Assembly: GCA_015068085.1 (NCBI GenBank)
Contig: SVLF01000007.1
Span: 6,361 to 70,360, forward strand
Direction: 5' to 3'
Source: Oscillospiraceae bacterium
Lineage (GTDB): Bacteria; Bacillota; Clostridia; Oscillospirales; JAAYXM01
DNA: 64,000 nt
Of this stretch, positions 11,572 to 28,102 are shown piece after piece. The notes below the pieces were generated by a model. It saw nothing but the letters and a program-made list of their open reading frames with translations, did no database searches and was not told where the DNA came from. The position numbers and the translations under genes are program-made. Numbering within the stretch: position 1 is the stretch's first letter; each line of letters begins with the position of its first letter.

Positions 11572-13047
11572 TTACGATAGTTTTTCAATTGCGACATCTA
11601 TTCTGCGGAGAGTTTCTTCTTTTCCGAGAATGTGACAGAACTCAACACCGCCTCCGGGCGTTACCTGCTTGCCTGAAAGCGCCGTGCGAAGCGGCCACAG
11701 AACAAATCCGTTCTTAAGCTCGTGCTCTGCAATATAGGCAAAGAGAGTGTCGTGGATACACTCAAAGCTCCAATCGCTTATTCCCTCAATAACCGGGCGA
11801 AGCTCACGCAGTGTGACAAGCGCGGTCTCTGCATTCGTCTTCATCTTCTTGTGGAAATACATCTCGCTGTCATACTCCGGAACAGCGTCAAAGAAATCAA
11901 CCTGCTCGGGAATATCGGAAAGCCGCTCACATCTCTGCTGAAGAAGCGGAGCAATGAGATCCGGATTAATGTCGGGGTTCTTTACGCCCTGACGGATATA
12001 CGGGCGAGCAACCTCTGCAAACTGCTCCGGTGTCATTGCGCGGATGTACTCTGCATTTATATACTTAAGCTTTGCCGTGTCGAAAATTGCAGGCGACTTT
12101 GATATGCCGCGAAGCTCGAAAATATCGACAAGCTCGGAAAGCGAGAATATTTCCTGCTCACCGCCCGGGCTCCACCCGAGAAGTGTTACATAGTTTACAA
12201 CGGCATCCTTAAGATAACCTTCGTTTATAAGATCCTCATAGGACGGGTCTCCGTTGCGCTTTGAAAGCTTATGCTGTGCATCCTTCATAACCGGTGAGCA
12301 GTGAACATACGTCGGGATTTCCCAACCGAAAGCCTCATAGAGAAGATTATATTTCGGCGCGGAAGAAAGATACTCCGAGCCGCGCACGACGTGAGTAATT
12401 CCCATAAGGTGATCGTCGATAACGTTTGCGAAGTTATATGTCGGATACCCGTCGCTCTTTATAAGAATCTGATCGTCAAGGTCTTCATTCGGAACGGTTA
12501 TATCGCCGTAAACAACATCTGAAAACGTTGTTTCGCCGCTTTCCGGCATCTTCTGACGAATAACATACGGAACCCCTGCATCAAGTTTCTCCTGAATCTC
12601 TTCCGGAGAAAGGCGTGAGCAACGTCCGTCATACTTCGTCGGTGCATCCCCTTCCTTTTCCTCATGGTCGGTCTTTTCGCAGAAGCAACGGTATGCCGCT
12701 CCCTTTTCTATCAAAAGCTCGGCATACTGCTTATACATTCCCATACGTTCACTCTGAACATACGGACCTACAGGGCCGCCGATATCCGGACCTTCATCGT
12801 AGTTAAGTCCCGTTTCGCGGAGCGTGCGGTAGATAAGGTCAGTAGCTCCCTCAACAAGACGTCCGCGGTCAGTATCCTCGATACGGAGGATAAAATCACC
12901 GCCGTTGTGCTTTGCAATCATATAGGTATAGAGAGCTGTGCGGAGATTGCCTATGTGCATATACCCCGTGGGGCTGGGAGCGAAGCGCGTTCTTACCTTT
13001 CCTTTAGGAATACGCGCCTCTGCCTCCTCGTAAAATTTCATATCCAT
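11572..13047 (-). CDS. gltX: Glutamate--tRNA ligase
   Basis: [25 protein letters not shown]. Confidence 0.97.
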
Positions 13048-13122
13048 TTATCATCAATCCTTATCTTATCCCCCGCCGCGTAAGCGGCGGGGTAATATTG
13101 CTTAAATATTTCAAAACTATAT

Positions 13123-14796
13123 TTATTTTTTCTTCGCCCATGAATCCTTGAGCGATACTGTGCGGTTAAACACAAGCTTTTCTTCTGTTGAAAGCTTTGT
13201 ATCAAGACAGAAATAACCGTTGCGGAGGAACTGGTAATGTCCGTCACCAAGGCCGTCTTTTATAGCAGATTCACATTTGCAGCCTGAGAGAATTTCAAGC
13301 GAATCGGGGTTGATGTTGTCCGTAAACGCACCGCCCTCGGGGAACTCGCCCGGATTTTCCGCGTTGAACAGATTCTCATAAAGGCGAACCTCCGCATCAA
13401 CCGCGTCATGCGCCGATACCCAATGGATTGTACCCTTTACCTTGCGCTTGTCGGGCGTATCACCGCCACGGGATTCGGGATCGTACTCTGCATGGATAAC
13501 AGTTACATTGCCGTTCTCATCGGTCTCAAAGCTCTTGCAGGTAACATAATACGCATACTTAAGGCGAACTTCGTTTCCGGGGAACATTCTGAAATATCCC
13601 TTGACCGGCTCTGCAAGGAAGTCCTCCCGCTCGATATAAAGCTCACGCGAGAAGGTAACCTTATGTGTTCCGCTGTTCTCGTCAGCCGGATTGTTCTGTG
13701 CGTCAAAGGTCTCCGTCTGCCCTTCTGGGTAATTGTCGATAACAAGCTTTATAGGACGGAGAACAACCATCATACGCATCGCGTTTTCGTTAAGATCCTC
13801 GCGGATGCAATGTTCAAGGAAACCGTAGTCAACGGTGTTATATGCCTTTGAAACGCCGATTCTCTCGCAGAAGTTGCGGATGGAGCGCGGAGTATAGCCG
13901 CGGCGGCGTAGTCCCGAAAGCGTCGGCATACGCGGATCATCCCAACCGTCAACGTGCTTTTCCTCAACAAGCTGGCGGAGATAGCGCTTGGACATAACTG
14001 TGTTTGTAACATTAAGGCGCGAGAACTCAATCTGGCGCGGCGGATTTTCAAATCCTATCTCCCGTACCACCCAGTCATAAAGCGGACGGTGGTTTTCAAA
14101 CTCGATTGAGCAGAGGGAATGGGTAATGCCCTCAAGCGCGTCCTGAATCGGGTGTGCATAGTCGTAAAGCGGATAGATGCACCACTTATCACCCTGACGG
14201 TGGTGGTGAGTGTGCAGAATTCTGTATATTGCCGGATCGCGCATATTCATATTCGGAGATGCCATATCAATCTTTGCGCGGAGAGTGTGGCTACCGTCCG
14301 GAAATTCGCCGTTCTTCATACGCTCAAACAAATCGAGGTTTTCCTCAACGGAGCGGTCCCGGTACGGGCTGTTCTTGCCCGGCTCTGTGAGCGTACCGCG
14401 ATACTCACGCATTTCATCTGCAGAAAGATCGCAGACGTATGCCTTGCCGCGTTTGATAAGCTCTATTGCAAACTCATAGCATTTGTCGAAATAATCCGAG
14501 CCGTAGAAGATGCCGCCGTTAGGCTCAGCACCGAGCCAGCGAAGATCCTCTTCTATTGAACGGACATATTCATCATCCTCGCGGACGGGGTTTGTGTCGT
14601 CATAGCGAAGATTGAAAAGACCGTTATATTTCTGTGCAACGCCTGCCGAAATCCAGATAGCCTTTGCACTGCCGATATGCAGATAGCCGTTCGGCTCCGG
14701 CGGAAAGCGCGTGTGAATCTTTGTTAATCCCTTTTTCTCAATATCCTCATTTATCGCCTCGTGGATAAAATTGGTTGGGCTTGTGTTTACGTCCAT
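13123..14796 (-). CDS. glnS: Glutamine--tRNA ligase
   Basis: [45 protein letters not shown]. Confidence 0.97.
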
Positions 14797-14966
14797 TATG
14801 TCAAACTACCTCCGATTTTTTACAGTTCACATTATTCTAAACTATATTTTACCACACTTTGTATGCAATACTCAATAGTAAATTTGAAATAATTCAGCAA
14901 AAAAATCCGAGCGACCTGTTTATCGTTCGGATTTTTATGTTGTACTGCGCATCGGTGAAGCCTTTC

Positions 14967-15230
14967 TTACAGCGGCGGTTCTGCCAACGCATCAAGCAGA
15001 AATTTTGTTGCAAAGCGTATTCCCTTTTCAAACGCTTTTTCAGAAGAATATCCACTTAACTCATTTATGTTTTCTTCATATTCTTCCAGCATCGCACGTT
15101 GCTCTTCATTGAGAGACGAGATTAGTTTACTGAGACTCGCCTCTGTTTTTTTCACTGCATCCTGCATTTCGCAGACTCTTTCGTTACGGTTTTCAAACAA
15201 ATACGTATTCCACAAATCTGAAAGAAACAT
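14967..15230 (-). CDS. Small helical hypothetical protein (DUF6809-like)
   Basis: AGGAGGTG SD, C-terminal AFEKGIRFATK pattern; followed by a hairpin at about 14901-14937. Confidence 0.7.
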   Translation of the reverse strand: MFLSDLWNTYLFENRNERVCEMQDAVKKTEASLSKLISSLNEEQRAMLEEYEENINELSGYSSEKAFEKGIRFATKFLLDALAEPPL

Positions 15231-15239
15231 ATTCCCACC

Positions 15240-15417
15240 TCCTGTCGCAAATAAAAAGTGCGCAGCCGAAGCTACGCACGAAAAATGCATAACTCCGATT
15301 TGCTGCGACACAAAGTTTTCTCATAACACAGGTATGTGAAAATAGAGCATGCATTTTTACCGAAAGGCAAAAAAACACACCAGTGCTATTGAGAAAATAT
15401 TAACCTTTATGTCGCAG
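15240..15417 (-). ncRNA. Structured 5' leader / attenuator-like RNA of unknown family
   Basis: Promoter TTGCAA-17-TAAAAT with extended TG (15450-15422); 13-bp stem 15405-15417/15303-15315; UUCG terminator 15258-15279 with U tract, just before the SD. Confidence 0.65.
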
Positions 15418-15571
15418 TTTTATTTTACCACAGTTTCTTTCTTTTTGCAATAAATTCAGACAAAATTTTTCCGCAAATCCCGAAGCTCTGCTTCATTGTA
15501 TTTTCCCTTGAACAAAAAACGCATTTATGGTACAATAAACATATACCACATCAGTGCGAGGTGTTACTACG

Positions 15572-15871
15572 ATGGATAACAAAACATTCGGGTTGCGCGA
15601 AGGCGTGTTGGAAAAGATAATAGAAATTGGAATCGGCTACGATGCCGAGCGGTTGGTTATCTTTGGCTCACGTGCCCGCGGAGATTATAAAGAAAGAAGC
15701 GATATTGATATAGCCATATACGGCGGAAACACGGATAATTTCTCGCTCGATGTTGATGAATTTGTTCCGACGCTCCTGAAATTTGATGTTGTTAATATGA
15801 ACAAGCCCGTACAGAAAGAGCTCCGTGACTCAATAGAAAAAGAAGGTGTCGTAATTTATGAAAAAGTATGA
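15572..15871 (+). CDS. Minimal nucleotidyltransferase (MNT) antitoxin
   Basis: IFGSRARGDYKERSDIDIA motif. Confidence 0.92.
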   Translation: MDNKTFGLREGVLEKIIEIGIGYDAERLVIFGSRARGDYKERSDIDIAIYGGNTDNFSLDVDEFVPTLLKFDVVNMNKPVQKELRDSIEKEGVVIYEKV

Positions 15872-16250
15872 AAACTTTTGCCGTGCGTATAAAAATCTTG
15901 AAGAATCCATAATTTTAGAACCACCGTATGATACGGTTACGCTTACCGGACTTGTTGCGCTTTTTGAGATAACGTTTGAACAGTCGTGGGAAATGATAAA
16001 AGAAATTCTCGAATATCACGGCTATGAGCAAAGCAACACCGGATCACCGAGAATTGTAATTAAAACCGCTTTTCAGGCAGGTATGATTGATGATGAAGAA
16101 ACCTGGCTTATGGCTCTTGCCGCACGAAACAACGTCGCTCATTCATACAACGAGGATATAGCACTCAGCATTGTCCGTGAAACGAAGGACATTTATGCCG
16201 GTATGTTTAAAAAGCTAAAAGAAACAGTTGAAAAAGCCTGGATTAAGTAA
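15858..16250 (+). CDS. HEPN / HI0074-family toxin
   Basis: FEITFEQSW, SPR, RNNVAHSY (RX4H); overlaps the MNT stop. Confidence 0.9.
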   Translation: MKKYENFCRAYKNLEESIILEPPYDTVTLTGLVALFEITFEQSWEMIKEILEYHGYEQSNTGSPRIVIKTAFQAGMIDDEETWLMALAARNNVAHSYNEDIALSIVRETKDIYAGMFKKLKETVEKAWIK

Positions 16251-16258
16251 CAAATCGC

Positions 16259-16306
16259 AAATAACGCAGCTCCACCGAATTTATATCGGCGTAAGCTGCG
16301 TTATTT
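16259..16306. terminator. Bidirectional terminator between convergent TA operons
   Basis: AAATAACGCAGCT...AGCTGCGTTATTT. Confidence 0.75.
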
Positions 16307-16320
16307 TACACAAAATTTTA

Positions 16321-16665
16321 TTATATATCAAAATAGTTTCGCAGGGCTTCCGTTATTTCCTCTTGTTTTGCAACATCCGTAAGCGCAGACACCTTATTGA
16401 GAAGTCTGTCGTGCGAAACCGTGCGTATCTGCTGTACCATTACAACAGACAGCTTAGGAAGCCCACTTTCGACCTGCTTCAAAAGTATTTCTGTCGGATA
16501 AATCTTATCTCCCGGCTTTACGCTCGAAAGAGGCAAAACCGTCGAAACCGGAATGTTATGATTTACGGCATCTGTGGAAATAACCATAACGGGTCTTGTT
16601 CCGCGTTGTTCACTTCCCTTTGTCGGGTCGAGATTACAGAAATATATTTCCCATTTGTTTACCAT
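16321..16665 (-). CDS. PemK/MazF-family endoribonuclease toxin
   Basis: LDPTKGSEQRGTRPV, QIRTVSHDRL. Confidence 0.93.
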   Translation of the reverse strand: MVNKWEIYFCNLDPTKGSEQRGTRPVMVISTDAVNHNIPVSTVLPLSSVKPGDKIYPTEILLKQVESGLPKLSVVMVQQIRTVSHDRLLNKVSALTDVAKQEEITEALRNYFDI

Positions 16666-16928
16666 TCTCCCTGTACCTCGCTGTCCGATAATGAAAAATC
16701 TTCTGCACATCGGCTTGTTCTCTCAATAAAGGCTTCATCCGCTGCAGCTTTTTTCATCTGTGCCGCATACTGAGCTTTCTTTATCTGCTTGAGATATTCA
16801 TCAACAGCCTGACGGATGCCATAATTTACAGACGGAATAAGATTTTCACCGGCGAGCGCTTTAAGGTCATTAAGCGCAGCAACTGGAAGCGTTGCGGTAT
16901 ATCTCGTTGTTTCTGTGTAGTTCATCAT
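16659..16928 (-). CDS. Cognate antitoxin (RHH-like)
   Basis: Small ORF overlapping the toxin start; N-terminal beta-helix-helix pattern, acidic tail ending in EW. Confidence 0.75.
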   Translation of the reverse strand: MMNYTETTRYTATLPVAALNDLKALAGENLIPSVNYGIRQAVDEYLKQIKKAQYAAQMKKAAADEAFIERTSRCAEDFSLSDSEVQGEW

Positions 16929-17124
16929 CAATATCACCTCAATTACAGTATACACTATATCATCCAAAATATCAACACTATTTTGATGATTTTTACGCAT
17001 CACATTTTGCATCTTTTTATGCACCTTGCGGAACAAACCGCAAGGTGCTTGATTTTTGTACTTGCCTTTTTGCAAAGCACAGCTCATTTTTGCATATACT
17101 GCTTTTGTAAAGGGGAGATTACTT

Positions 17125-17565
17125 ATGCCGTTTTCCGACAGAGAGCTGCTTGCACGGCTTATCCAGTGCGAGGCAGGAGGCGAAGGCGACACCGGTATGC
17201 AGGCTGTTGCAAGCGTTATTATGAACCGTGTGTATGCGCCCGACGGAGAATACGCCCGCGTCGGTCAGCAGAATATCCGCAACATCATCTTTCAGCCCGG
17301 TCAGTTTGAATGTGCAACGGACTATTACAACAACCGCTACAACCCGCAGAACATATATAATATGAACCCCGAGCAGATACATTACGATATCGCCGACTGG
17401 GCAATCGCAGGCAACCGTCTTTCCCCGCTCGGTACGGCACTGTGGTTTTTCAACCCCTTCTCACCCGAATGCAGAGAGAATTTTCCGAGCGGAGTGGGCG
17501 TTTTTGCCGTGAGAGTGGGCGAACACTGCTTTTACAACCCTACGGAAGCGTATTCAGATACTTAA
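17125..17565 (+). CDS. Cell wall hydrolase (SleB/CwlJ-like, Hydrolase_2)
   Basis: LLARLIQCEAGGE, VIMNRV, QPGQFE, LWFFNP, HCFY. Confidence 0.9.
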   Translation: MPFSDRELLARLIQCEAGGEGDTGMQAVASVIMNRVYAPDGEYARVGQQNIRNIIFQPGQFECATDYYNNRYNPQNIYNMNPEQIHYDIADWAIAGNRLSPLGTALWFFNPFSPECRENFPSGVGVFAVRVGEHCFYNPTEAYSDT

Positions 17566-17586
17566 TTTATATATGGAGTGATTTTT

Positions 17587-17913
17587 ATGGATTCATTAAA
17601 CCCGAGAATGAACTTTACACAGCCGAGACCTCAAAATGATTTTTATGAGCTCAGTGGCACACCTTCCGCTCAGCAATCACAGGTGCTGATGCTCGGCGAA
17701 CAGTTGCAATCCTCAATCGGCTATTATGTGAGCTGCGAGTTCTTAATCGGCACGCAGATACTTGAAACGCGCGACGGAATTCTCGCTAAGGTCGGAACAA
17801 ATTTTCTCACGCTGTATCAGCCAAACCTCGAGCGCTATATTGTCTGCGACTTGTATGCACTTAAATTCATAACGATTTATAACAGCACAACTGTCCCAAG
17901 CCTGAACAGATAA
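17587..17913 (+). CDS. Hypothetical protein, GerQ-like spore coat protein
   Basis: Follows the cwlJ-like gene (cwlJ-gerQ pairing); GILAKVGTNFLTL pattern. Confidence 0.55.
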   Translation: MDSLNPRMNFTQPRPQNDFYELSGTPSAQQSQVLMLGEQLQSSIGYYVSCEFLIGTQILETRDGILAKVGTNFLTLYQPNLERYIVCDLYALKFITIYNSTTVPSLNR

Positions 17914-17959
17914 AGAGAAAAGATGCGGCAGAATCATTTCTGCCGCATTCGCTCTCTTT

Positions 17960-19720
17960 TTATACCTTTGAAAGAACATACTTTTCTGCGTATTTGTTGA
18001 AGTCGTCAACAAACTCTCCCGTAATGGAGTGCTTGACCTGATTGAGGTATCCGTGCGTGTTGAGTTCTTCTTTTCTGATCTGAATTATGCATACCGCAAT
18101 GTTCGAGCAATGGTCCGAAACTCTTTCGCAGTTCGTTAGAACGTCTGAGAGGATAAAGCCAAGCTCTATAGTGCAGTTGCCTTCCTTAAGGCGCTTGATA
18201 TGACGTGCCTTGATATCACTTCCGAGACCGTCGATAACCTGCTCAAGCGGCTCGACGTGTGCAGCAAGCTGCGCATCGTCCTGACCGAATGAGCGGATAG
18301 CAATGTCAAGAATTTCTTCAACCGCCGCAACGAGGATATGTAAGTCTGCCTTTGCTTCGTCGGAGAAGCTTATTCCCTTCTCGTCCATTTCGCGTGCGGT
18401 TTTGAGAAGGTTTACGGCATGGTCGCCTATTCGCTCAAAATCTCCGATTGTATAAAGAAGTCTTGAAATCTCGCGGCTCTCGTCTTCGGATACGCCAAGC
18501 CCCGACAGCTTTACGAGGTATGTGCCGAGCTTGTCCTCATAAGTGTCGATTCTCGCTTCAGCATCTTCGATTTCCTGTGCACGTTTTTCCGAGAAATCCC
18601 ACATCAGCTCTGCTGCATCGTGGAAGGTTGCTTTCGCAAGCACTGCCATTTCTCCGGCTATGCCTTTGCAACGCTCAATTGCAAAGCTCGGGGTGTTGAG
18701 CAGACGCTCATCAAGGAAGTTCGTTGCATCCTCAGGTGCGCTATCCGGTACGGAAATCGTTGCAAGATGACCGAGCTGCTTTGAAAACGGAAGAAGCAGA
18801 AAGGTTGAAAACACATTAAACATTGAATGAACAACCGCAATATCAACAGCAGACATCGACATTGTTTTAAAGCTGAAATCAAAGAAAAGGTCAAGACCGT
18901 AGAACAAAACAAAAACGATTATAACGCCGATTATATTGAAATACAGATGGACAAGCGCCGCTCTTCTCGCATTCTTTTTCGCACCGATGCACGAGATAAG
19001 CGTTGTTGTACACGAACCGATGTTCTGACCGAGAATCATCGGTATTGCGAAGCCATATGTAACATTACCCGCAACAGCCATCGCCTGCATAATACCAACG
19101 GATGCAGATGAGCTCTGCAAAAGCGTGGTAAGAGCAAAGCCTGCAAACATACCGAGAATGGGATTTGTGAACATAAGAAGGAAATCCTCAAACCCCTGAA
19201 GGCTTGTTATCGGCTCCATAGCGTCAATCATCGTATTCATACCGACCATAAGCACGCCGAAACCGACAAGTATCGAGCCGATATCGCGCTTTTTGCTCTT
19301 CTTTGAAAGCATTATCATCGCAATGCCGACAAACGCAAAAAGCGGAGCAAAGTTTGACGGCTTTAAAAGCTGAACAAAAAAGCTGTCGCCCTGAATACCC
19401 GTAAGGCTGAGTATCCACGCCGTCGCTGTTGTACCGATGTTTGCACCCATAATAATTCCTATCGCCTGTGCAAGCTTCATTATGCCGGAGTTTACAAAGC
19501 CGACAACCATAACCGTCGTCGCGGCGCTGGACTGGATAATTGCCGTTACAACAGCGCCGAGCAAAACACCCTTGAATATTTTGTCGGACAGGCGTTCCAG
19601 AATTCCCTCAAGCTTGCTTCCTGAAACGCGCTCAAGCCCCGAGCCCATTACCTTCATTCCGTAAAGGAACAGGGCAATACCGCCAAGAAGCTCAAAAATC
19701 GTAAAAATGTCAATACTCAC
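17960..19720 (-). CDS. Na/Pi cotransporter with C-terminal PhoU domains
   Basis: IQSSAATT, GANIGTT, LQSSSAS, GQNIGS, FERIGDHAVN, ERVSDHCSN. Confidence 0.95.
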   Translation of the reverse strand: MSIDIFTIFELLGGIALFLYGMKVMGSGLERVSGSKLEGILERLSDKIFKGVLLGAVVTAIIQSSAATTVMVVGFVNSGIMKLAQAIGIIMGANIGTTATAWILSLTGIQGDSFFVQLLKPSNFAPLFAFVGIAMIMLSKKSKKRDIGSILVGFGVLMVGMNTMIDAMEPITSLQGFEDFLLMFTNPILGMFAGFALTTLLQSSSASVGIMQAMAVAGNVTYGFAIPMILGQNIGSCTTTLISCIGAKKNARRAALVHLYFNIIGVIIVFVLFYGLDLFFDFSFKTMSMSAVDIAVVHSMFNVFSTFLLLPFSKQLGHLATISVPDSAPEDATNFLDERLLNTPSFAIERCKGIAGEMAVLAKATFHDAAELMWDFSEKRAQEIEDAEARIDTYEDKLGTYLVKLSGLGVSEDESREISRLLYTIGDFERIGDHAVNLLKTAREMDEKGISFSDEAKADLHILVAAVEEILDIAIRSFGQDDAQLAAHVEPLEQVIDGLGSDIKARHIKRLKEGNCTIELGFILSDVLTNCERVSDHCSNIAVCIIQIRKEELNTHGYLNQVKHSITGEFVDDFNKYAEKYVLSKV

Positions 19721-19945
19721 GCAAATTCTCCTTTCTTCTCCGAAAGCGTTATATTTTTTAATTTACTCCGAGTATATCATAACACAATTTATAATGGCGT
19801 TCAATAGATTAAAAAAATGAAATTTGCAATTTTATACAACGCCTTTTCGTGCAGATTGACGGAGAGGAAGTTTCTTGTGAGTATGAAACCGGAAAGGTGA
19901 ATTTTCCTTCTATCGCAAATAATTTTCCAAATAGCAAAAAAAGAG

Positions 19946-19974
19946 TTGACAATATTATATATTCGGGATATAAT
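19946..19974 (+). promoter_or_regulatory. sigmaA promoter of tRNA-Ala
   Basis: TTGACA-17-TATAAT. Confidence 0.85.
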
Positions 19975-19987
19975 TATATAGTTATTT

Positions 19988-20063
<76 letters not shown>

Positions 20064-20170
20064 AACACCTTGGAATCATTGCGGTTTCAAGGTGTTTTGC
20101 TATTTGTGGCGTGCTTTTTCAGAGCGCTTGAATGATTGTAAAATTTCTATTATTCAAGAGGTGCAGATTT

Positions 20171-21103
20171 ATGGCAAGAATTATGATGACAACAAGCGCA
20201 AATCCAACAGCCGAACAAGTGTTTTCTTTCTTCATCTCAGCGACTGCCGCACGAGGTGCAAAAGACAAAACACTTGACACTTACAAACAGCATTTTCGCT
20301 CTATTTCCAAACGACTTGATACCTCAATTCCAATAGGCAATCTGACAAAAGTGCATTTGGATGATATGATATTCGAAATGCGAGCGGGCGGTCTTTCTTC
20401 ACGCTCAATAAACAGTTATACACGCACTCTGAAAACTTTTCTCTCTTGGTGCAACTCTGAAGGATACACTTCTTTGAACATTCCCATTTATAAAGCAAGC
20501 GAATCCACAAAAGAAACATACTCGGATGATGAATTGTTGATACTTTTAAAGAAACCAAGAGCGGGATGTAACTTTTGCGAATACCGCAATTGGGTTATTA
20601 TCAATTTTCTTTTAAATAGCGGTTGTCGCGCGGCAACCGTGCGCAACATTCAGATACAAGATGTATATTTGCAAAATCGTCAGATACTGCTGAGGCATAC
20701 GAAAAATGGCAAACTGCAAACAATCCCGCTCTGCATGGAAATGGTTTCTATTCTCCAAGAGTATATGCAGATACGCGGTGGAAGCAGGACTGATTATCTG
20801 TTCTGCAATGAGTTCGGCAATTATCTTTCCGAAAGTGCCTTGCGGCAGACAATTGTAAAATACAATAGGAAAAGAGGAATAAAGCGAACCTCCATCCATG
20901 CATTTCGGCATACCTTCGCGCGAAAGTATCTTGTAGATTGCGGCGGCGATGCTTTCACATTGCAGAGGATATTAGGACACTCAACTCTTGCAATGACAAA
21001 GCATTATTGCAACATTTTTAATTCAGATATTGTTGATAAATACGAAAGTCTTTCACCACTTGCACAACTTAAAAAAACGAGCGGGAAGTATATCAAAAAA
21101 TAA
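20171..21103 (+). CDS. Tyrosine recombinase/integrase
   Basis: SGCR, HTKN, HAFRHTFA, ILGHS, HY catalytic residues. Confidence 0.95.
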   Translation: MARIMMTTSANPTAEQVFSFFISATAARGAKDKTLDTYKQHFRSISKRLDTSIPIGNLTKVHLDDMIFEMRAGGLSSRSINSYTRTLKTFLSWCNSEGYTSLNIPIYKASESTKETYSDDELLILLKKPRAGCNFCEYRNWVIINFLLNSGCRAATVRNIQIQDVYLQNRQILLRHTKNGKLQTIPLCMEMVSILQEYMQIRGGSRTDYLFCNEFGNYLSESALRQTIVKYNRKRGIKRTSIHAFRHTFARKYLVDCGGDAFTLQRILGHSTLAMTKHYCNIFNSDIVDKYESLSPLAQLKKTSGKYIKK

Positions 21104-21105
21104 CG

Positions 21106-21145
21106 AAAAAGACGCAAGAAACAATCAAGTTTCCTGCGTCTTTTT
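21106..21145. terminator. Bidirectional terminator
   Basis: AAAAAGACGCAAGAAAC...GTTTCCTGCGTCTTTTT. Confidence 0.8.
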
Positions 21146-21180
21146 AACATCATTCATACATCTTTTATGCAACAAATCAC

Positions 21181-23106
21181 CTAAAATCTCTCTTTGATTT
21201 TCTCTGTTAAATATTCAATAATCTTTCCATATAAAAATCCCGCAAGTCCTCCACAGAGAATAGTCAAAAGACCGATAGCTATTCCTTTCGCTGTAAATGT
21301 CATATAATTATTTTGCACAAAAATAATTACCAACAGAAGTGCCACATACGGAACACCAAAAACGAGACCCGCAAACACATTGGCAAGAGTTCTTGAAAAT
21401 GACTCTCTTTGAGATTCAACTTTTCTTTCCAGTGTTTGATTTTTCTCAGACACATCCATTTTATCTGTTATAGCTCGACTGAGCTTATCTTTAGTTTTTT
21501 GATGTTCTTCCTTTTCTGTTTCATATTTCTTGTCTCCTTCAAACTGCGCATCCGCCTTAATCTGAACATAAACCTCTCGCCATGTTTGATCAGTAAACTG
21601 AGAATAATCCCCCGACGTAGCATCAAGAAGTTTTGTTTCTACAATAGGATGTGACCTCAAAAACAAAAATTTCTCTTCCGTTAAGCCTTCCGCCTTTTTT
21701 TGATAAGCCTTATCCAAGGAAAGGTTAAAACTGGCAATCATTTGAGGCGTAGGACGCAACAAAGCTCTACAATCTGCTAACAACTTAAAACTACTATAGT
21801 CGTTATTTTCATCACCATAATCCATCCAAAGAAGAGTACCAAAAATATCAGCTGTGATACTTGTCGGTATTATACCCTTAGCTGGCTCTTCTTCGCACGC
21901 AATATCTTTGCTAACCTTCGCAATTACTCTATTTGTTGTTATAAATATAGCCTTTGCAGTTTTAATACTAGTTGATAGTGTTCCTCTTCTTTTTCTTTGA
22001 GTCATCACTATTGATCTGACATCCGTTCTAATACTATTGTCATAAAGTCCTTCAGTAGAATATTTACTATCTCTCTCACTATATTCGTTTTTTATTGCAT
22101 CGGATATCTTTTCTTCGTCGGCTTGGAATTGATTTTCCTCTACCAAGTAGCTGGCATCATATCGAGCGATCCCCATAAGGTTAAGCATACCCTCAACTTC
22201 ACCGATATATTCAACCATTTCCTCAGACGTTTTATCAGAATTACGGAAAAACTGTGCCACCTTATTAGCTTTTGCGGGGTCATAGTCATCACGTTGCGCC
22301 CATCTCGCCGCGCGCTCCATTATTCCTAACACTTCCTGTAAGTTATGGTCAAACACAAAGAGAGACATCCCCACTTTCTTCGCTTTTTCAACGATATATT
22401 GGTATGCATCTTTTCTTTCAAGCGTATCCATCCCCAAAAGCGCAAAAATCATAGGAGTGTCTAAGAATACTTGCAAATCAGATTGTTGTGCAGAATCTGT
22501 ATTTGAATAAAACAAAGTCGCCTTTGCAATATTTGCCATACACAAGCCTTCAACAAAAGCGTGTCGTTCAACATCGCGTTCTCTTAAATCCAGAATATAT
22601 TTACACCAATGATATACGAACTGACTATTTGTAGCGTCTATATCCCCAATATGATTAAAAATAACATGGTCATCATAATCATCTAAAAAGGCAGTGATGT
22701 TTTTTTCTATTTCTTTTTCATTCAAACTATAATTATGTTTTTTTGCATATTCGCCAAAATCTGCAATAAGCGTTTTCCACTTACTTAGAAAACCATCGTC
22801 TGAAAGACGCAGTTTCCTCATCTCTGAAATATCCGGAACATAGCTTCCTTTTACCCTTTTCACCATCTTCCTATCCATAGCTTCACCCAACACCTGTCGA
22901 ACAAAAGTAGGCTGGAACGTTGCGTTGTATTTTTCTTTCAACTTAGAACAAATGATACTTACATCAACAACTTCCATTCCCTCATCAACTATTATAGTTG
23001 CTATGAATGGTAAATATTTGTCGAGAATATTCGAAGAAACAAAATTACTTTTCATCATCGCATATGCCTTAACAAACTGATCTGTCATCATATGTACCTC
23101 CACCAT
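21181..23106 (-). CDS. Hypothetical protein: wHTH-like N-terminus, PIN-like core, coiled coil, two C-terminal TM helices
   Basis: QVFLDTPMIF, later D and FITTN motifs, charged helical stretch, two hydrophobic segments; domain calls made by eye. Confidence 0.65.
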   Translation of the reverse strand: MVEVHMMTDQFVKAYAMMKSNFVSSNILDKYLPFIATIIVDEGMEVVDVSIICSKLKEKYNATFQPTFVRQVLGEAMDRKMVKRVKGSYVPDISEMRKLRLSDDGFLSKWKTLIADFGEYAKKHNYSLNEKEIEKNITAFLDDYDDHVIFNHIGDIDATNSQFVYHWCKYILDLRERDVERHAFVEGLCMANIAKATLFYSNTDSAQQSDLQVFLDTPMIFALLGMDTLERKDAYQYIVEKAKKVGMSLFVFDHNLQEVLGIMERAARWAQRDDYDPAKANKVAQFFRNSDKTSEEMVEYIGEVEGMLNLMGIARYDASYLVEENQFQADEEKISDAIKNEYSERDSKYSTEGLYDNSIRTDVRSIVMTQRKRRGTLSTSIKTAKAIFITTNRVIAKVSKDIACEEEPAKGIIPTSITADIFGTLLWMDYGDENNDYSSFKLLADCRALLRPTPQMIASFNLSLDKAYQKKAEGLTEEKFLFLRSHPIVETKLLDATSGDYSQFTDQTWREVYVQIKADAQFEGDKKYETEKEEHQKTKDKLSRAITDKMDVSEKNQTLERKVESQRESFSRTLANVFAGLVFGVPYVALLLVIIFVQNNYMTFTAKGIAIGLLTILCGGLAGFLYGKIIEYLTEKIKERF

Positions 23107-23195
23107 TTTTTAAAACTCCGCCATACCAAGCAGCATCTTTTTCACAATAATATTTTACAGAACTTTTTACAAAAATGCAAATGGTTTTATCTCGC

Positions 23196-24362
23196 TCAAT
23201 ACATTTTTCTCACGTTTTCTACATAACTCTTGAACTTCTCCACAACATCATCCGGAGCAACTATTTTCACCTTTTTACCAAATCCCAAGAGCCAACCGAA
23301 GAACTGATTGCTGATTTCTACTTTTGCGGTAACTGTGAAATGGCTGTCATCGCATTTGGAATATTGAGCTTCCTTTGTACCGAAACGTTCAATGGCGGTA
23401 TCCAATAGAGGATTGATAAAACGCAAGGTAATTCGCTTTTCTTCACCGCTATACATATTGAAGGCTCTTCGAGTGTATGTTGTCAGGTCTATCTTCTTGA
23501 ACTCTGCTTCTCCGTCTCTTGGTTCTCCGGTATATCGGATGTCTTTCATTCTGTCAACGCGGTATGTCCATAACTTCTTCTTTTTATCATCAAATGCAAG
23601 CAAATAATAATTGCCGTCATTTATCAAAAGTTTGTATGGACTTACGATATATCTTTCGCCTTTTCTTCGGTCTATCTGTTGGTTTACATCGTCAATTGTA
23701 TGCTTCAAGTATTTAAAGCTGATCTTTTCCGGCTCGTGTGCATCATCTCCGTTTCGATAACTCATAGCATCATTGATTGTCATAACGTTTGTGAAAACAT
23801 TTTTGTTTGCGGTTCTCGCCCTATCGACCATAAATGCATCGTGCCTGAGATTTTCTGCCTGATGCTCGCTTACCAACCCACAAACCACATCAATCAATTG
23901 TCTCACTTTCGATTCCGAAACAAATTTTGCCGTATAAACACATTCAGCCAAAAGACGAATATCATTTAACTCAAATTTGCGTTGTTTTACATAAAAGCCT
24001 TTTGAATGTTTGTCATAAACAATTAATTTGAGTTCGTCAAACTCATCATCTGCAAGCATTTCTGCCGCTTCTGAAATCTCGCAATCTTCCTGAAATGCCA
24101 ATGCCACCTTGTTTATATCTTCAATATCGCGGTAAATTGACCTTCTTTCTGCATAAACACCGTAATCAGCGAGAAACCCTTCAATATCGTATGCAGATAC
24201 TGTGTGATTTTCATCTGTCGCAACCAACAGATATTGAAGAACAAGATACGGTTTAAGTTTTTGGTTTTCTCTCTTGCCATGGTGTGCTTCTACCTTACCG
24301 TTTAAATGCTTGTCTGCTTTGCGGTAAAACTTTTTATATTTAATTTCCTCCACGTACATCAC
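23196..24362 (-). CDS. WYL-domain transcriptional regulator
   Basis: N-terminal wHTH (ERRSIYRDI), VSPYKLLINDGNYYLLA, YRVDRM, WCX tail (FFGWLLGFGKKVKIVAP); true start may be GTG 24353. Confidence 0.92.
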   Translation of the reverse strand: MMYVEEIKYKKFYRKADKHLNGKVEAHHGKRENQKLKPYLVLQYLLVATDENHTVSAYDIEGFLADYGVYAERRSIYRDIEDINKVALAFQEDCEISEAAEMLADDEFDELKLIVYDKHSKGFYVKQRKFELNDIRLLAECVYTAKFVSESKVRQLIDVVCGLVSEHQAENLRHDAFMVDRARTANKNVFTNVMTINDAMSYRNGDDAHEPEKISFKYLKHTIDDVNQQIDRRKGERYIVSPYKLLINDGNYYLLAFDDKKKKLWTYRVDRMKDIRYTGEPRDGEAEFKKIDLTTYTRRAFNMYSGEEKRITLRFINPLLDTAIERFGTKEAQYSKCDDSHFTVTAKVEISNQFFGWLLGFGKKVKIVAPDDVVEKFKSYVENVRKMY

Positions 24363-24366
24363 TCCA

Positions 24367-24386
24367 ATTGAAAGTGCACTTTCAAT
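24367..24386. promoter_or_regulatory. 20-bp perfect palindrome over the +1 of the WYL promoter
   Basis: ATTGAAAGTGCACTTTCAAT, directly downstream of the minus-strand TGnTATAAT (24396-24388). Confidence 0.7.
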
Positions 24387-24466
24387 AATTATAACATATA
24401 AGCTTCAAAAATGGAATCTTATTCATTTTTATTGATTTATTTTCCTAAAAGTGATATAATACAATC

Positions 24467-24696
24467 ACCACATACAACAATTTAATATCAATGACAAGAT
24501 ATTTCTACAAATATCTCTATTTGTGTTACACATTTATATGATGTTACACGGCAATATTAAGTTTGTTAAAAACGCAGGCTGAAATATGTTTTGTCGTGTG
24601 ATATTCATATTAGATTGTTGTGTGTGGTAACCAGTAATCAAGCCGCGTTTTTGATGCGTGGTGCAGATTTCTGTTGCCACGCATTTTTTATTTGCG
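24467..24696 (+). ncRNA. Structured RNA / attenuator leader divergent from the WYL gene
   Basis: TTGATT-17-TATAAT with extended TG (24432-24460); 22-bp helix 24467-24488/24607-24628 with two G:U pairs; terminator 24654-24689. Confidence 0.7.
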
Positions 24697-24759
24697 TGAG
24701 ACTTTAGAAAGGAGTTCTTTATTCTTAATTTTAATAATCATATTGAAAGGTGGCTTGAC

Positions 24760-24906
24760 ATGAAAACAATTAAATTTAAAGAAAGCGATAAAGACTTGAT
24801 TCAAAGAATCAAAGAATATCAAAATGCACATGGCTTATCATCGTTTGTGGCAGCAGTTCGCAAACTATGTGCAGATGCCCTTGCAATAGAGAAAATAAGA
24901 CATTAA
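24760..24906 (+). CDS. 48-aa RHH-like small protein (absent from the ORF track)
   Basis: GAAAGGTGG SD; MKTIKFKESDKDLIQRIKEYQNAHGLSSFVAAVRKLCADALAIEKIRH. Confidence 0.65.
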   Translation: MKTIKFKESDKDLIQRIKEYQNAHGLSSFVAAVRKLCADALAIEKIRH

Positions 24907-24921
24907 AAGGAGAAATATCAA

Positions 24922-26280
24922 ATGAAAAAGAAAATTATATCACTTACCCTTAGTGTTGCTATGTTTTTGAGTGTGTTCCCAACAACATTTGCAACGGGAG
25001 GCAGTCTCACAAATTTCAAGAAGAAAAACACATATGTTCCAGGTCAGTTTTCTGACGTTGCTCCTGGTGCATGGTATGAAAATACAGTGGCTTCTGCTTA
25101 CGAAACCGGACTGATCAAGGGCTCATCCGAAACGAGCTTTAACCCAAATGGGAACATAACAATGGCAGAATCGCTCGCTTTGGCTTCCAGAATTCATAAT
25201 ATATATAACGGCGGAAGTGGTGAGTTTACCCAAGGATCACCATGGTATAAGGTTTACGTTGATTATGTAGTGAAAAACGATATATATGAATTGGCATCAC
25301 AGCATTCCCATTCACAGTTAAATGCAAATTGGTCGCGTGAAAATTTTATTAGATGTTTATCAAAAGCAATTCCTGAAGAAGAATTGAACGAAATTAACAG
25401 CATTCCGGATGGTTCTATTCCTGATGTTTTTTGGAAAAATGATGAAATTTATTCTCTTTATAGAGCAGGAATCATTACCGGTAATGATGAAAAAGGAACG
25501 TTCAATGCAAATTCCCCAATCAAGCGCTGTGAAGTAGCAACAATTGTTGCGCGGTTGATAGACAAATCGAAGAGAGTAAAGTTTTCCTTGTCCGGTGGTC
25601 TTGTGATGCCTGACTCTATCACAATAGAAGAACAAAAAGACGCCATTAACATAGGTAACAGAATATATTTGCATGCAACCGTATTACCGGACACTTTACG
25701 CACTAACAAGACTTTGGTATGGTCATCCGATAATCCAACGGTTGCCTCAGTAGATGACGATGGGGATGTAACAGGGTTGACACCTGGAGAAGCAAACATA
25801 ACCGCGACAACGGTAAACGGACTTTCTTATACAGTACGCGTTAAGGTAATGGATCTCCGTCCGAAATTTACATATGATTCAGTAAAAGAATTAGCCATAG
25901 CATGTTCCGAAGCAGGCGATGCTGGTATCCGAATGTCCAACTATCTCTCAGCAGCACTGGATGATCTGCTCGACAGAGAAAACATCTATTTGCGTTATTC
26001 TATGATAAAGAAAGAAGCGGAGAGTGTATCATGGGATTTGACAACAGCTATCAAAATACTCAAAAAACACGTCCCGGTAAAATTAACAGACGGTAGCACA
26101 TTGTTGGAGCTGGCTGAAAAGGCTCTTTCAGCCAATGAAAAAATAATAGCATTAGAAATGACTGAGGACACAGCTATTGAACGTTCTATAGAACTTTACG
26201 ATTTGGTTAGCGACTATCTTATCCATACTTCAGCTATCATAGGCATCGTCGCGGATATGTCAGCCAATGTTGTCAAATAG
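24922..26280 (+). CDS. SLH-domain surface protein with Big_2 Ig-like domain
   Basis: Signal peptide; FSDV...GLIKG...FNPNGNIT and GIITG...IKRCE SLH repeats; WSSDNPTVASVD. Confidence 0.88.
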   Translation: MKKKIISLTLSVAMFLSVFPTTFATGGSLTNFKKKNTYVPGQFSDVAPGAWYENTVASAYETGLIKGSSETSFNPNGNITMAESLALASRIHNIYNGGSGEFTQGSPWYKVYVDYVVKNDIYELASQHSHSQLNANWSRENFIRCLSKAIPEEELNEINSIPDGSIPDVFWKNDEIYSLYRAGIITGNDEKGTFNANSPIKRCEVATIVARLIDKSKRVKFSLSGGLVMPDSITIEEQKDAINIGNRIYLHATVLPDTLRTNKTLVWSSDNPTVASVDDDGDVTGLTPGEANITATTVNGLSYTVRVKVMDLRPKFTYDSVKELAIACSEAGDAGIRMSNYLSAALDDLLDRENIYLRYSMIKKEAESVSWDLTTAIKILKKHVPVKLTDGSTLLELAEKALSANEKIIALEMTEDTAIERSIELYDLVSDYLIHTSAIIGIVADMSANVVK

Positions 26281-26338
26281 TCATTTCAAACCAAAAAGCA
26301 ATCAAATCATATGGGTCAGACAAAATGTCTGACCTTTT

Positions 26339-26899
26339 TCATTTTCTCGCCCTGACCAACGTACTTTTACTGATGCCGGTCATTTCAGTTACTTGTTTGT
26401 ATGTCTTGCCTTGTTCCAATAGTGAAAGCGCAAGTTGCAGTTGTTGCGGTGTGTATTTCTTCGGTCTGCCTTCTCTGAAATTTGCATCTTGTCGTGCGAG
26501 CATCTTTCCGGTTTGCGTGCGCTCGACAATCATTCCTCTTTCATACTCAGCAAACGCGAGCATAACAGTCAGTATCAGATTTCCGGTGAGCGTATTTTCA
26601 ATCAGTCCCATATTCAGAATGTGAACTCTTATGTTCCGTTCAAACAGTTCGCGCACTGTCTGAACCCCTTCTATTGCGGTTCGCGCAAATCTGTCGAGCT
26701 TGCTGACAACCAATGTATCACCCTCTTGGAGTTGTTCCAACAGAGAAAGAAACGCAGGTCGTTCCATCGTCTTTCCGGTAAATGCTTCTTTGATTATCTT
26801 TTGACATCCGTATTTTTCAAGTGCGGCAACCTGCTCTTCAAGGCTGTTGCCGTCGCGCCCTTGTGCGGTTGTCGACACACGTGCATATCCGTAAATCAT
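26339..26899 (-). CDS. Serine recombinase (resolvase/invertase)
   Basis: [26 protein letters not shown]-terminal HTH. Confidence 0.95.
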
Positions 26900-26927
26900 A
26901 TCAATTTTCTCCTTTACTTTTGGTTCT

Positions 26928-26987
26928 AAGTTATGACACCGCGCAAACCCGCATATTTTCAGCATTAGAAAAACGGTGTCATAACTT
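26928..26987. promoter_or_regulatory. Putative res site / resolvase binding inverted repeat
   Basis: AAGTTATGACACCG...CGGTGTCATAACTT, 14-bp IR upstream of the resolvase. Confidence 0.6.
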
Positions 26988-27038
26988 TTGAGTTTTGGAA
27001 CGCGACAGTTTTTTTCTGCCGCGCTCCTTTTCTATCAA

Positions 27039-27698
27039 CTAATCCAAATGAGCAAGAATTAGTTGTTCATCGCAATCCATACATTTGATTCTGACTTCCT
27101 TTGTCGCTCTGACACTCATTCCGCAACAAGGACAAACGTATTTTCTCGTGCTACTCTTCTTTCGTGGTGTTTGTCCGTTGTCTGAATTGCCGTTGTGCGT
27201 TCCGCTTCCACCAATCTGTGGTGCGTAAAAATCGTTTCGGCAAATTCTTATCTCAGGCAATTCTTTTTCCATACAGAACTCAAGCAACTCATCGCTCGGT
27301 GAAGTTCTCGACCATCCGTAGGTGTCGTGATGCGTGACCGCAAGACCGCACTCCTCAGCTTTTATTTTAAACTTTCGATTGTGGTATGTATTTCCTCTGC
27401 TACAATCTTTTATGTTGTTGATATCATTGTAGTAATGTATCATTTCGTGCAAGAGAGTTGCAACAATTTCTTCTATTGGTCTGGAAAGCGTTCCTGCACC
27501 GAGGTTAATTTCTCTGACACCCTTTTCGTTGTCCAAACTCCAAGCATCATAAAGTGTGTAATGTCCGTATGCTTTCGGAGTTGACTGAATTGTTATCACC
27601 GGTCTTGAAAGTGCACTTTCAAAATATCGCTCATTCAAAAGCTGAAATATTGAATTGAGGTATCCTGCTACGCGATTATAGGTTGTCATTTCTTTCAT
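27039..27698 (-). CDS. SprT-like zinc metalloprotease with C-terminal Zn ribbon
   Basis: LLHEMIH (HEXXH), YHNRKFK, CPCC...CMDC; GGGAGTG SD. Confidence 0.88.
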   Translation of the reverse strand: MKEMTTYNRVAGYLNSIFQLLNERYFESALSRPVITIQSTPKAYGHYTLYDAWSLDNEKGVREINLGAGTLSRPIEEIVATLLHEMIHYYNDINNIKDCSRGNTYHNRKFKIKAEECGLAVTHHDTYGWSRTSPSDELLEFCMEKELPEIRICRNDFYAPQIGGSGTHNGNSDNGQTPRKKSSTRKYVCPCCGMSVRATKEVRIKCMDCDEQLILAHLD

Positions 27699-27826
27699 AA
27701 TTTTCACTCCCTTTACTTGATTTTTAGGAGTGAACATTTTATAATTATTAATGTCCACTCCCTTTTCTCGGTTGTGGTCAACTCTTCGTCTGTGGCTTTG
27801 GTCGGCATTCAGATGAAGAGTTTTTC

Positions 27827-28102
27827 TTATGCGATGGAAAACCTGCGACTTGCGGATTGTTTGATGAAGTTCTTGTATACATCCGGCATCTCCTTTTTGA
27901 AAGCTGTCGTGTCGAACCTCTGTGTCAGAACACTTGTCCATCTTACGATGTAAGTTCCGACTTCAAGTTCTTCAACATCAAGGTCTGCCATCTCAGCCTT
28001 GATGCTGTCGCGAAGTGTATCAGCTTCTGCTTTTGCTTCTTCCATAAGTGCTTCCCACTCGTTAAGTGCCTCGATCTTTGCTACCAATTCGTTCTTGCTC
28101 AT
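27827..28102 (-). CDS. Small hypothetical coiled-coil/beta protein of mobile elements
   Basis: AAGGAG SD, consensus promoter upstream; RFDTTAFKK...SRRF tail. Confidence 0.75.
   Translation of the reverse strand: MSKNELVAKIEALNEWEALMEEAKAEADTLRDSIKAEMADLDVEELEVGTYIVRWTSVLTQRFDTTAFKKEMPDVYKNFIKQSASRRFSIA

Follow-up and report, generated by a model that had tools for sequence, protein, structure and literature searches.

An apparently undescribed leader RNA family with competing terminator and antiterminator pairings in gut and rumen Clostridia

Can two RNAs that have hardly any sequence in common belong to one family, and what would such a family do? The question is raised by a 64,000-nt stretch of contig SVLF01000007.1 from an Oscillospiraceae bacterium (here called the window), in which two divergent transcripts, RNA A on the minus strand and RNA B on the plus strand, were described in an earlier note as sharing one layout of promoter, long helix, loop motif, linker and terminator. 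The note regarded them as a structured RNA family of cis-attenuators or small RNAs (sRNAs) of Clostridia, associated with accessory DNA and small regulatory genes. A structured family in Clostridia is supported by the analysis: models built on each RNA detect the other, the pairing between loop and linker covaries, and no described Rfam family is matched. A and B are probably two of ten copies, in their own genome, of a cis-acting leader RNA of 150–230 nt that functions as a transcription attenuator. The family as a whole is real and widespread, and appears to be a hitherto undescribed group of cis-regulatory leaders of the terminator/antiterminator kind, and apparently an orphan as regards its signal.

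Membership and distribution of the family

The overall identity between A and B is as low as had been proposed, and a BLAST search with B finds only a 17-nt match in A, with an E-value of about 5. BLAST with A found further copies in the genome that carries both RNAs. A covariance model (R1) was made from 19 A-type copies, B not being among them, and its structure was limited to the basal helix P1 and the terminator. In a whole-genome search R1 listed nine sense copies in this genome, and B was not listed; with the filters off, B was the second-best match in the window (33.7 bits), with its P1 placed on an internal helix in the resulting alignment. The reciprocal model (R2), made from just B and the one ortholog of B, in genome G013, has as its best non-self matches the other nine copies at their exact positions, with scores from 14.8 to 36.2 bits (C8 36.2, C27 33.9, C131 30.9, C48 26.0, C21 25.9, C124 23.6, C126 21.1, A 20.8 and C56 14.8). 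The genome thus holds ten copies, A and B included. R1 also gives weak antisense matches (22–40 bits) over the same loci, at 15304–15427 (+) in the window and at several others, which do not represent separate genes but arise from the nearly palindromic sequences of P1 and of the U-run/A-run hairpin.

The family is found far outside the genome in which it was noticed. Within the taxonomic family, BLAST matches were obtained in 23 of 32 genomes; at the level of the order, R1 matched in 55 of 151 genomes belonging to 19 of 30 taxonomic families; and at the level of the class, matches at E<=1e-5 came from 41 of 151 genomes, a single genome carrying as many as 15 copies. An exact IUPAC nucleotide-code pattern of the conserved 3' part occurs in at least 120 stretches of a species-genome collection. 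Among the matches listed for this pattern all record titles are those of gut or rumen metagenome-assembled genomes, and the names include Acutalibacteraceae, Oscillospiraceae, Ruminococcaceae, Ruminococcus, Faecalibacterium, Oscillibacter and unclassified Clostridia. The association with accessory DNA put forward earlier holds for RNA B, which lies in what looks like a tRNA-integrase island (see below), but the searched collections of phages, plasmids and viral contigs contain next to no copies of the family. An origin from phages or plasmids was accordingly rejected: the pattern has 0 matches in viral contigs, and blastn with RNA A matches 2 of 50,697 phage records, both of them unannotated faecal contigs, and 0 plasmids.

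That the family is undescribed, as had been supposed, is in agreement with the comparison with Rfam 15 (4227 models), in which membership was taken as a score at or above the gathering threshold at the position of the RNA. The whole window gave only a tRNA at the gathering threshold, the region 14800–25200 gave only chance matches of the microRNA and small nucleolar RNA type far below threshold at E<=10, and 20 copy-bearing loci gave no match at the RNA positions at E<=1. No description of the leader family was found in the papers searched; the supplementary catalogues of structured-RNA surveys lay outside this search, and an unnamed entry there is possible. The text searched in PMC11109978 and PMC8632094 has 0 occurrences of the taxon and gene terms, that of PMC5737381 has passages on rumen and ROOL only, and the passages found in PMC8040213 include none matching the leader family. 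Two sub-threshold matches to Gut-1 RNA (RF01706) are located a few hundred nt upstream of two family copies (L015:606-674 and L018:1201-1269; 44.5 and 41 bits, where the gathering score is 50), and tRNA genes are found about 380 nt upstream of copies in L018, L020, L021 and L023.

Conserved helices and competing pairings

Every element that had been listed for the two RNAs was found at, or within a few bases of, its proposed position. Promoter scans give both RNAs an extended -10 box preceded by TG with a -35 box at 17 nt, the folds place the start of a helix at or adjoining the inferred +1, and both RNAs end in a terminator and U-tract followed by a ribosome-binding site. The fold z-score is -8.08 for A and -7.50 for B, and for each RNA 0 of 200 shuffles were as stable. 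Single-sequence folds across the family share P1 (12–21 bp), an internal loop with AAUAU on the 5' side, a variable helix P2 and an apical helix P3 formed by a U-run and an A-run, with an unpaired segment of 14–16 nt and the consensus UGCAUGCUCUAUUUUC on the 3' side of P3. P2 and P3 were judged from these folds and not by covariation because MAFFT misaligns the inner helices; MAFFT with RNAalifold recovered P1 and the terminator only. Two of the shared motifs need to be described differently from the earlier note. UUAAUAU is present in both RNAs but not in like positions, being unpaired in A and inside P1 in B, and the supposed loop motif is present as well, but in A its A-run is the 3' arm of the small U-run/A-run hairpin and not a loop. 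This A-run of RNA A has a double role, as it also forms part of a long-range helix.

An alignment of 59 copies to R1 was used to count the pairing in P1, in the terminator and in the long-range helix. In P1, 94.3% of the alignment cells are paired and 11 of 12 pairs have changes on both sides, while in the terminator the values are 99.8% and 7 of 9 pairs. The long-range helix connects the segment containing the A-run (segment b) with the linker region 3' of P1 and is paired in 93.1% of cells, with changes on both sides in 7 of 15 pairs; the pairing between loop and linker proposed earlier covaries. The complementarity itself is real but extends over 12–16 bp instead of the 8 originally proposed. 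As the long-range columns are unpaired in R1, the alignment has not been fitted to this helix. Taken over the whole structure 95.2% of cells are paired, compared to 87.1% in shuffles (0 of 500 as high) and 34–52% with slid partners. When read from the sequences, divergent copies have exchanged the long-range helix wholesale with complementarity kept (AAAAAUGCAAAUUCC/GGAGUUUGCAUUUUU, AAAAACGCAAAUUCUG/CGGGGUUUGCGUUUUU and AAAAACACAU/AUGUGUUUUU); in RNA A the helix consists of AAAAAUGCAU(G)CUCU paired with GGAG(UU)AUGCAUUUUU. The duplex of interior and linker was also better than those with shuffled linkers in 10 of 10 copies of the window's own genome, with z-scores from -2.2 to -4.6.

The same strands have other partners. 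The linker of RNA A and the adjoining segment d are complementary to segment b and alternatively to the 5' arm and loop of the terminator, and for the second, antiterminator pairing about 91% of cells pair in the 59 copies. When linker and terminator are folded together, the antiterminator has the lowest energy in 7 of 10 own-genome copies, 1.7–5.4 kcal/mol below the terminator alone. In addition, a linker-like region 5' of P3 is complementary to the segment that follows the A-run, in RNA A too; the mean energy of this duplex is -7.7 kcal/mol compared to -3.7 kcal/mol for shuffled sequences, with z<-1.64 in 36 of 58 copies. Three strands therefore compete in the pairing of the A-run segment, and the linker competes with the 3' arm of the terminator as well. 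This chain of competing pairings constrains the sequence of the terminator, which accounts for its conservation. A triple helix of the U-A-U type, made of the two U-runs and the A-run, was considered and set aside by inference from strand polarity.

Position before genes, a proposed switch and its alternatives

The position of the copies relative to genes was determined for the 104 copies that are followed by 400 nt or more of sequence, by looking for an open reading frame (ORF) of at least 40 aa on the same strand that is preceded by a Shine-Dalgarno (SD) sequence and starts within 200 nt. Such an ORF was present in 95 of 104 copies, compared to 26 of 91 in the divergent control direction. 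The commonest ORF start lies 17–24 nt after the U-tract, i.e., after the end of the model, which leaves no room for another promoter, and the downstream genes would therefore depend on read-through. This arrangement, an own promoter and a leader that ends in a GC-rich hairpin and a U-tract directly upstream of an ORF, is that of a generic intrinsic-terminator attenuator.

The genes that follow are diverse. Pfam matches among 47 first ORFs were to BspA-type leucine-rich repeats (LRR_5, 4 cases), DUF6809 (4), LRR_8 (3), Zn_Ribbon_1 (3), Band_7_1 (2) and SHOCT (2), with single cases of AMP-binding, DUF4234, YpsA and NlpC/P60, and many had no family; no paper on DUF6809 was found in the literature search. 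Many of the first-ORF products begin with a lipoprotein or signal-peptide sequence as judged by eye. Unnamed families of small proteins recur behind the leader in different orders, viz. a 77-aa protein starting MNIKLELL, a 40–54-aa protein starting MPDYK/MDNYK..MY..LFN and a 55–68-aa Cys-rich protein, none with a Pfam match (L024:513-743, L003:1322-1483, L031:1282-1485 and relatives). The earlier association with small regulatory genes is valid for some copies, which precede XRE, RHH, AbrB or HicA-like genes, but most copies precede genes for secreted proteins, lipoproteins, BspA-type and Zn-ribbon proteins or small unknown proteins. A leader peptide was rejected: an ORF of 8 or more codons that begins with ATG behind an SD sequence is found in 1 of 59 copies, and the common ATGs are lost in covarying copies. 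Similarly, the downstream ORF can be extended in frame through the terminator in A, C48 and C8, but the frames differ and the extension is not conserved.

From the competing pairings we infer how the leader could work as a switch in the cell and in which direction. Each copy would be transcribed from its own strong sigma-A promoter and the transcript would fold into a long imperfect rod, with P1 from +1, the AAUAU internal loop, the variable P2 and the apical P3, the latter followed by a single-stranded UGCAUGCUCU-like segment; the leader ends in an intrinsic terminator, some 20 nt upstream of the start codon of the gene presumed to be controlled. In the OFF state the linker would pair with the A-run and the segment following it, and the resulting helix of 12–16 bp would serve as an anti-antiterminator, so that the terminator forms and transcription stops. 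In the ON state a free linker would pair with the 5' arm and loop of the terminator, and this antiterminator would allow read-through. The third competitor, the linker-like region 5' of P3, may keep the A-run segment in an extended hairpin.

Several observations weigh against this attenuator. First, most of the variation in the antiterminator consists of G-U pairs and one-sided changes, both sides having changed in only 5 of 14 pairs, and in three of the ten copies (C21, C124 and B) another fold has the lower energy. Second, a C-A mismatch interrupts the long-range helix of the G013 ortholog of B, and cognate linkers pair only modestly better than non-cognate ones (-18.3 versus -14.6 kcal/mol). 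A 15-bp helix from the tip of the rod to a linker 5–7 nt from its base would also need a sharp bend or a partial unfolding. Third, only AAUAU, the P3 loop and CAGCAA are conserved among the unpaired nucleotides, which is thin for a ligand pocket. Fourth, 9 of 104 copies have no adjacent ORF, nor do copies C21 and C131 of the window's own genome, and some leaders occur in tandem, 45–60 nt apart (L030, L039, L070, L211 and L219, and C1 and C186 of G099), and these have promoters of their own, situated between the preceding terminator and the P1 that follows.

A strong promoter and a strong terminator for each copy would also suit a trans-acting sRNA, or a leader that doubles as one, in which the abundant terminated transcript of 150–230 nt would itself be the product, with other mRNAs or paralogous leaders as its targets, and the downstream gene would be expressed by leakage only. 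We regard this as unlikely. An SD-preceded ORF on the same strand about 20 nt downstream, as found in 95 of 104 copies, speaks against it; moreover, the intramolecular alternatives account for all conserved segments, and the linker of each copy fits its own interior. The tandem arrays, where the first copy is succeeded by another copy instead of a gene, and the copies without an adjacent ORF are on the other hand easily accommodated by an sRNA, and because non-cognate duplexes of interior and linker are nearly as stable as cognate ones, cross-talk between copies is possible. Dependence on Hfq was rejected, as in the class sample Hfq scores above the cut-off in only 12 of the 41 carriers (and in 78 of all 151 genomes).

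Nor does the attenuator have to sense anything if the leader is a constitutive expression cassette, where a strong promoter, a stabilising helix at the 5' end and a leaky terminator provide a fixed low output for many accessory genes. The covarying long-range helix of 12–16 bp would be superfluous in such a cassette, and so would the complementarity between linker and terminator arm and the linker-like competitor 5' of P3; the closeness of the calculated energies of the two states is likewise a point against it. Even with the scarcity of conserved unpaired nucleotides, the very heterogeneous downstream genes and the inclusion of the 5'-terminal nucleotide in P1, all of which agree with a fixed output, we consider the cassette distinctly unlikely. 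A miniature inverted-repeat mobile element or other DNA-level repeat, with P1 as terminal inverted repeats and an incidental RNA structure, would account for the multiple intergenic copies, the inverted repeat of 12–21 bp around about 100 bp and the weak antisense matches, but is highly improbable when P1, the long-range helix and the terminator keep their pairing by compensatory changes across orders, the orientation to the next gene is fixed (95 of 104) with a constant SD spacing, no transposase context is seen, and copies are nearly absent from the mobile-element collections searched.

If the leader is an attenuator, a shared leader implies a shared signal, which might be a small molecule, a factor of protein or RNA, or the rate at which the transcript is made and folds. 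It is tempting to speculate, although we hold this only tentatively, that we are dealing with a riboswitch-like orphan class, or else with a co-transcriptional folding switch complete in itself, either of which would respond to a single global signal; its regulon could reach about 15 genes in a genome and would comprise BspA-type surface proteins, lipoproteins, Zn-ribbon membrane proteins and the unnamed small-protein families in gut and rumen Clostridia. In a bolder variant the terminated leaders could act in trans on nascent paralogs and so couple surface-protein genes, since linkers and interiors of paralogous copies can nearly replace one another as far as pairing energy is concerned. The leader is common among bacteria of the gut and rumen that are important there and for the most part uncultured, in which it fronts cell-surface proteins and several small-protein families of unknown function. 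Identification of the shared signal would define a new regulon in these bacteria and would give a functional handle on DUF6809 and several unnamed families of small proteins, and the three-way competition for one A-run segment makes a clear and testable design for a transcriptional RNA switch.

Known attenuators and the surroundings of the two RNAs

In design the leader is close to riboswitch platforms of the OFF type (for example SAM-I/S-box, preQ1-I), in which a ligand-stabilised helix is the anti-antiterminator, and to three-hairpin attenuators, but it belongs to none of the families tested. Common to these and the leader family are a structured domain proximal to the promoter, a 3' strand that could pair with either the sensor (terminator formed) or the 5' arm of the terminator (antiterminator), several copies per genome and an occasional tandem arrangement. 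The leader family differs in that no Rfam riboswitch model is matched, the sequestering helix is a long-range helix of 12–16 bp of the pseudoknot type, the conserved junction nucleotides are few and no metabolite is suggested by the downstream genes. In Firmicutes the PyrR-dependent pyr leaders, like other attenuators under protein control, have competing anti-antiterminator, antiterminator and terminator hairpins. The leader family resembles them in the chain of three alternative pairings that constrains the leader sequence, and appears to be unlike them in having no known binding-protein motif, no linked regulator gene and unrelated gene sets.

Riboswitches for cyclic di-GMP (c-di-GMP) in Clostridia are also present in many copies per genome before surface-protein, adhesin and unknown genes; unlike these, the leader family has no match to their model in the window region or in the 20 loci. 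As a ligand c-di-GMP was rejected, as PF00990 (GGDEF) has no match in 36 of 55 carrier genomes of the order sample, including G028, G038, G049 and G078, which are all at least 96% complete; the window's own genome has 3 GGDEF matches. A whole-genome search with RF01051 carries no weight, its control having matched in 0 of 14 genomes. T-box leaders are similar in size (150–250 nt), in the choice between terminator and antiterminator, which is putative in the leader family, and in being multi-copy in Firmicutes, and the genes for glutaminyl- and glutamyl-tRNA synthetases (GlnRS and GluRS) downstream of the first gene behind RNA A would suit a T-box. In contrast to T-box leaders, however, no T-box model match was obtained in the window, no T-box sequence or specifier architecture was seen, 0 of 47 first downstream ORFs encode a synthetase, and the first genes are not related to amino acids.

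In lambdoid phages the PR'-tR' region, the source of the 6S transcript, is the site of Q antitermination. This region shares with the leader family a strong constitutive promoter, a short structured transcript and a strong terminator just before the genes, and a -10-like TAATAT is located at about +13 to +19 in the leader family, as in PR'-tR'. The differences are that the leader family is chromosomal, with 0 matches in viral contigs and no Q-like gene seen, and that its covariation at the RNA level points to an RNA switch. The evidence speaks neither for nor against a sigma-dependent pause at the TAATAT of the leader.

The features of both RNAs and of the genes directly behind them are collected in Table 1. 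A simple terminator scan missed the terminator of RNA B, which is visible in the centroid fold.

Table 1. Features of the RNA A locus (14967–15450, minus strand) and the RNA B locus (24432–26280, plus strand), in window positions. MFE, minimum free energy.
RNA	Feature	Position	Strand	Sequence or description	Basis
A	RNA overall	15416-15249	-		
A	Promoter	15450-15422	-	-35 TTGCAA, spacer 17 nt, -10 TAAAAT with upstream TG	promoter scan and reading of sequence
A	P1, 5' strand	15416-15405	-	UGCGACAUAAAG, start at or adjoining inferred +1	MFE fold; covariation
A	J1/2 motif	15404-15398	-	GUUAAUA, conserved, unpaired (family consensus nAAUAU)	MFE fold
A	P3 hairpin	15374-15354	-	U-run, GCC, loop UUUC, GGU, A-run	MFE fold
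A	Segment b	15358-15344	-	AAAAAUGCAUGCUCU, 5' strand of long-range (pseudoknot) helix	covariation
A	P1, 3' strand	15315-15304	-	CUUUGUGUCGCA	MFE fold; covariation
A	Linker	15303-15297	-	GCAAAUC	
A	Segment d	15296-15281	-	GGAGUUAUGCAUUUUU, directly 3' of linker	
A	Terminator hairpin	15279-15258	-		terminator scan; covariation
A	U-tract	15257-15249	-	UUUUUAUUU, then GCG	
A	SD sequence behind RNA	15242-15235	-	GGAGGUGG	
A	DUF6809 ORF behind RNA	15230-14967	-	87 aa, ATG at 15230, through stop at 14967; gene presumably controlled by RNA A	Pfam PF20648, E 1.5e-8
B	RNA overall	24467-24693	+		
B	Promoter	24432-24460	+	-35 TTGATT, spacer 17 nt, TG-extended -10 TATAAT	promoter scan
B	P1	24468-24488 with 24607-24627	+	21 bp	fold
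B	UUAAUAU	24482-24488	+	inside 5' strand of P1	
B	Segment b	24568-24580	+	AAAAACGCAGGCU (= AAAAACGC-A-GGCU)	
B	Linker	24628-24640	+	UAACCAGUAAUCA, AAUC within	
B	Segment d	24641-24652	+	AGCCGCGUUUUU, complementary to segment b	
B	Terminator hairpin	24654-24684	+	U-tract to 24693	centroid fold; hairpin fold
B	ORF behind RNA	24760-24906	+	48 aa, ATG at 24760	no Pfam family
B	SLH/Big_2 protein	24922-26280	+	after 48-aa ORF	

RNA B is considered to lie on accessory DNA because the genes around it, from 19988 to 27941, look like an integrated tRNA-integrase island. This region begins with tRNA-Ala(GGC) (19988–20063), followed by a tyrosine integrase (20132–21103) and a 641-aa protein without a clear family. 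The remainder consists of a WYL/WCX protein (23196–24362, minus strand), RNA B, the SLH/Big_2 protein, a serine resolvase (26339–26965, minus strand) and an SprT-like protein.

Downstream of the DUF6809 gene behind RNA A, GlnRS (557 aa) and GluRS (491 aa) are encoded in tandem (11572–14796, minus strand), and neither a T-box nor another Rfam leader was detected in the gap of about 170 nt before GlnRS. Divergent from the RNA A promoter are a nucleotidyltransferase gene of the Polbeta type (15554–15871) and its partner NTase_sub_bind (15858–16250), which constitute an MNT/HEPN-like pair, and beyond these on the same side a gene for a PemK/MazF-type toxin is found (16321–16710, minus strand).

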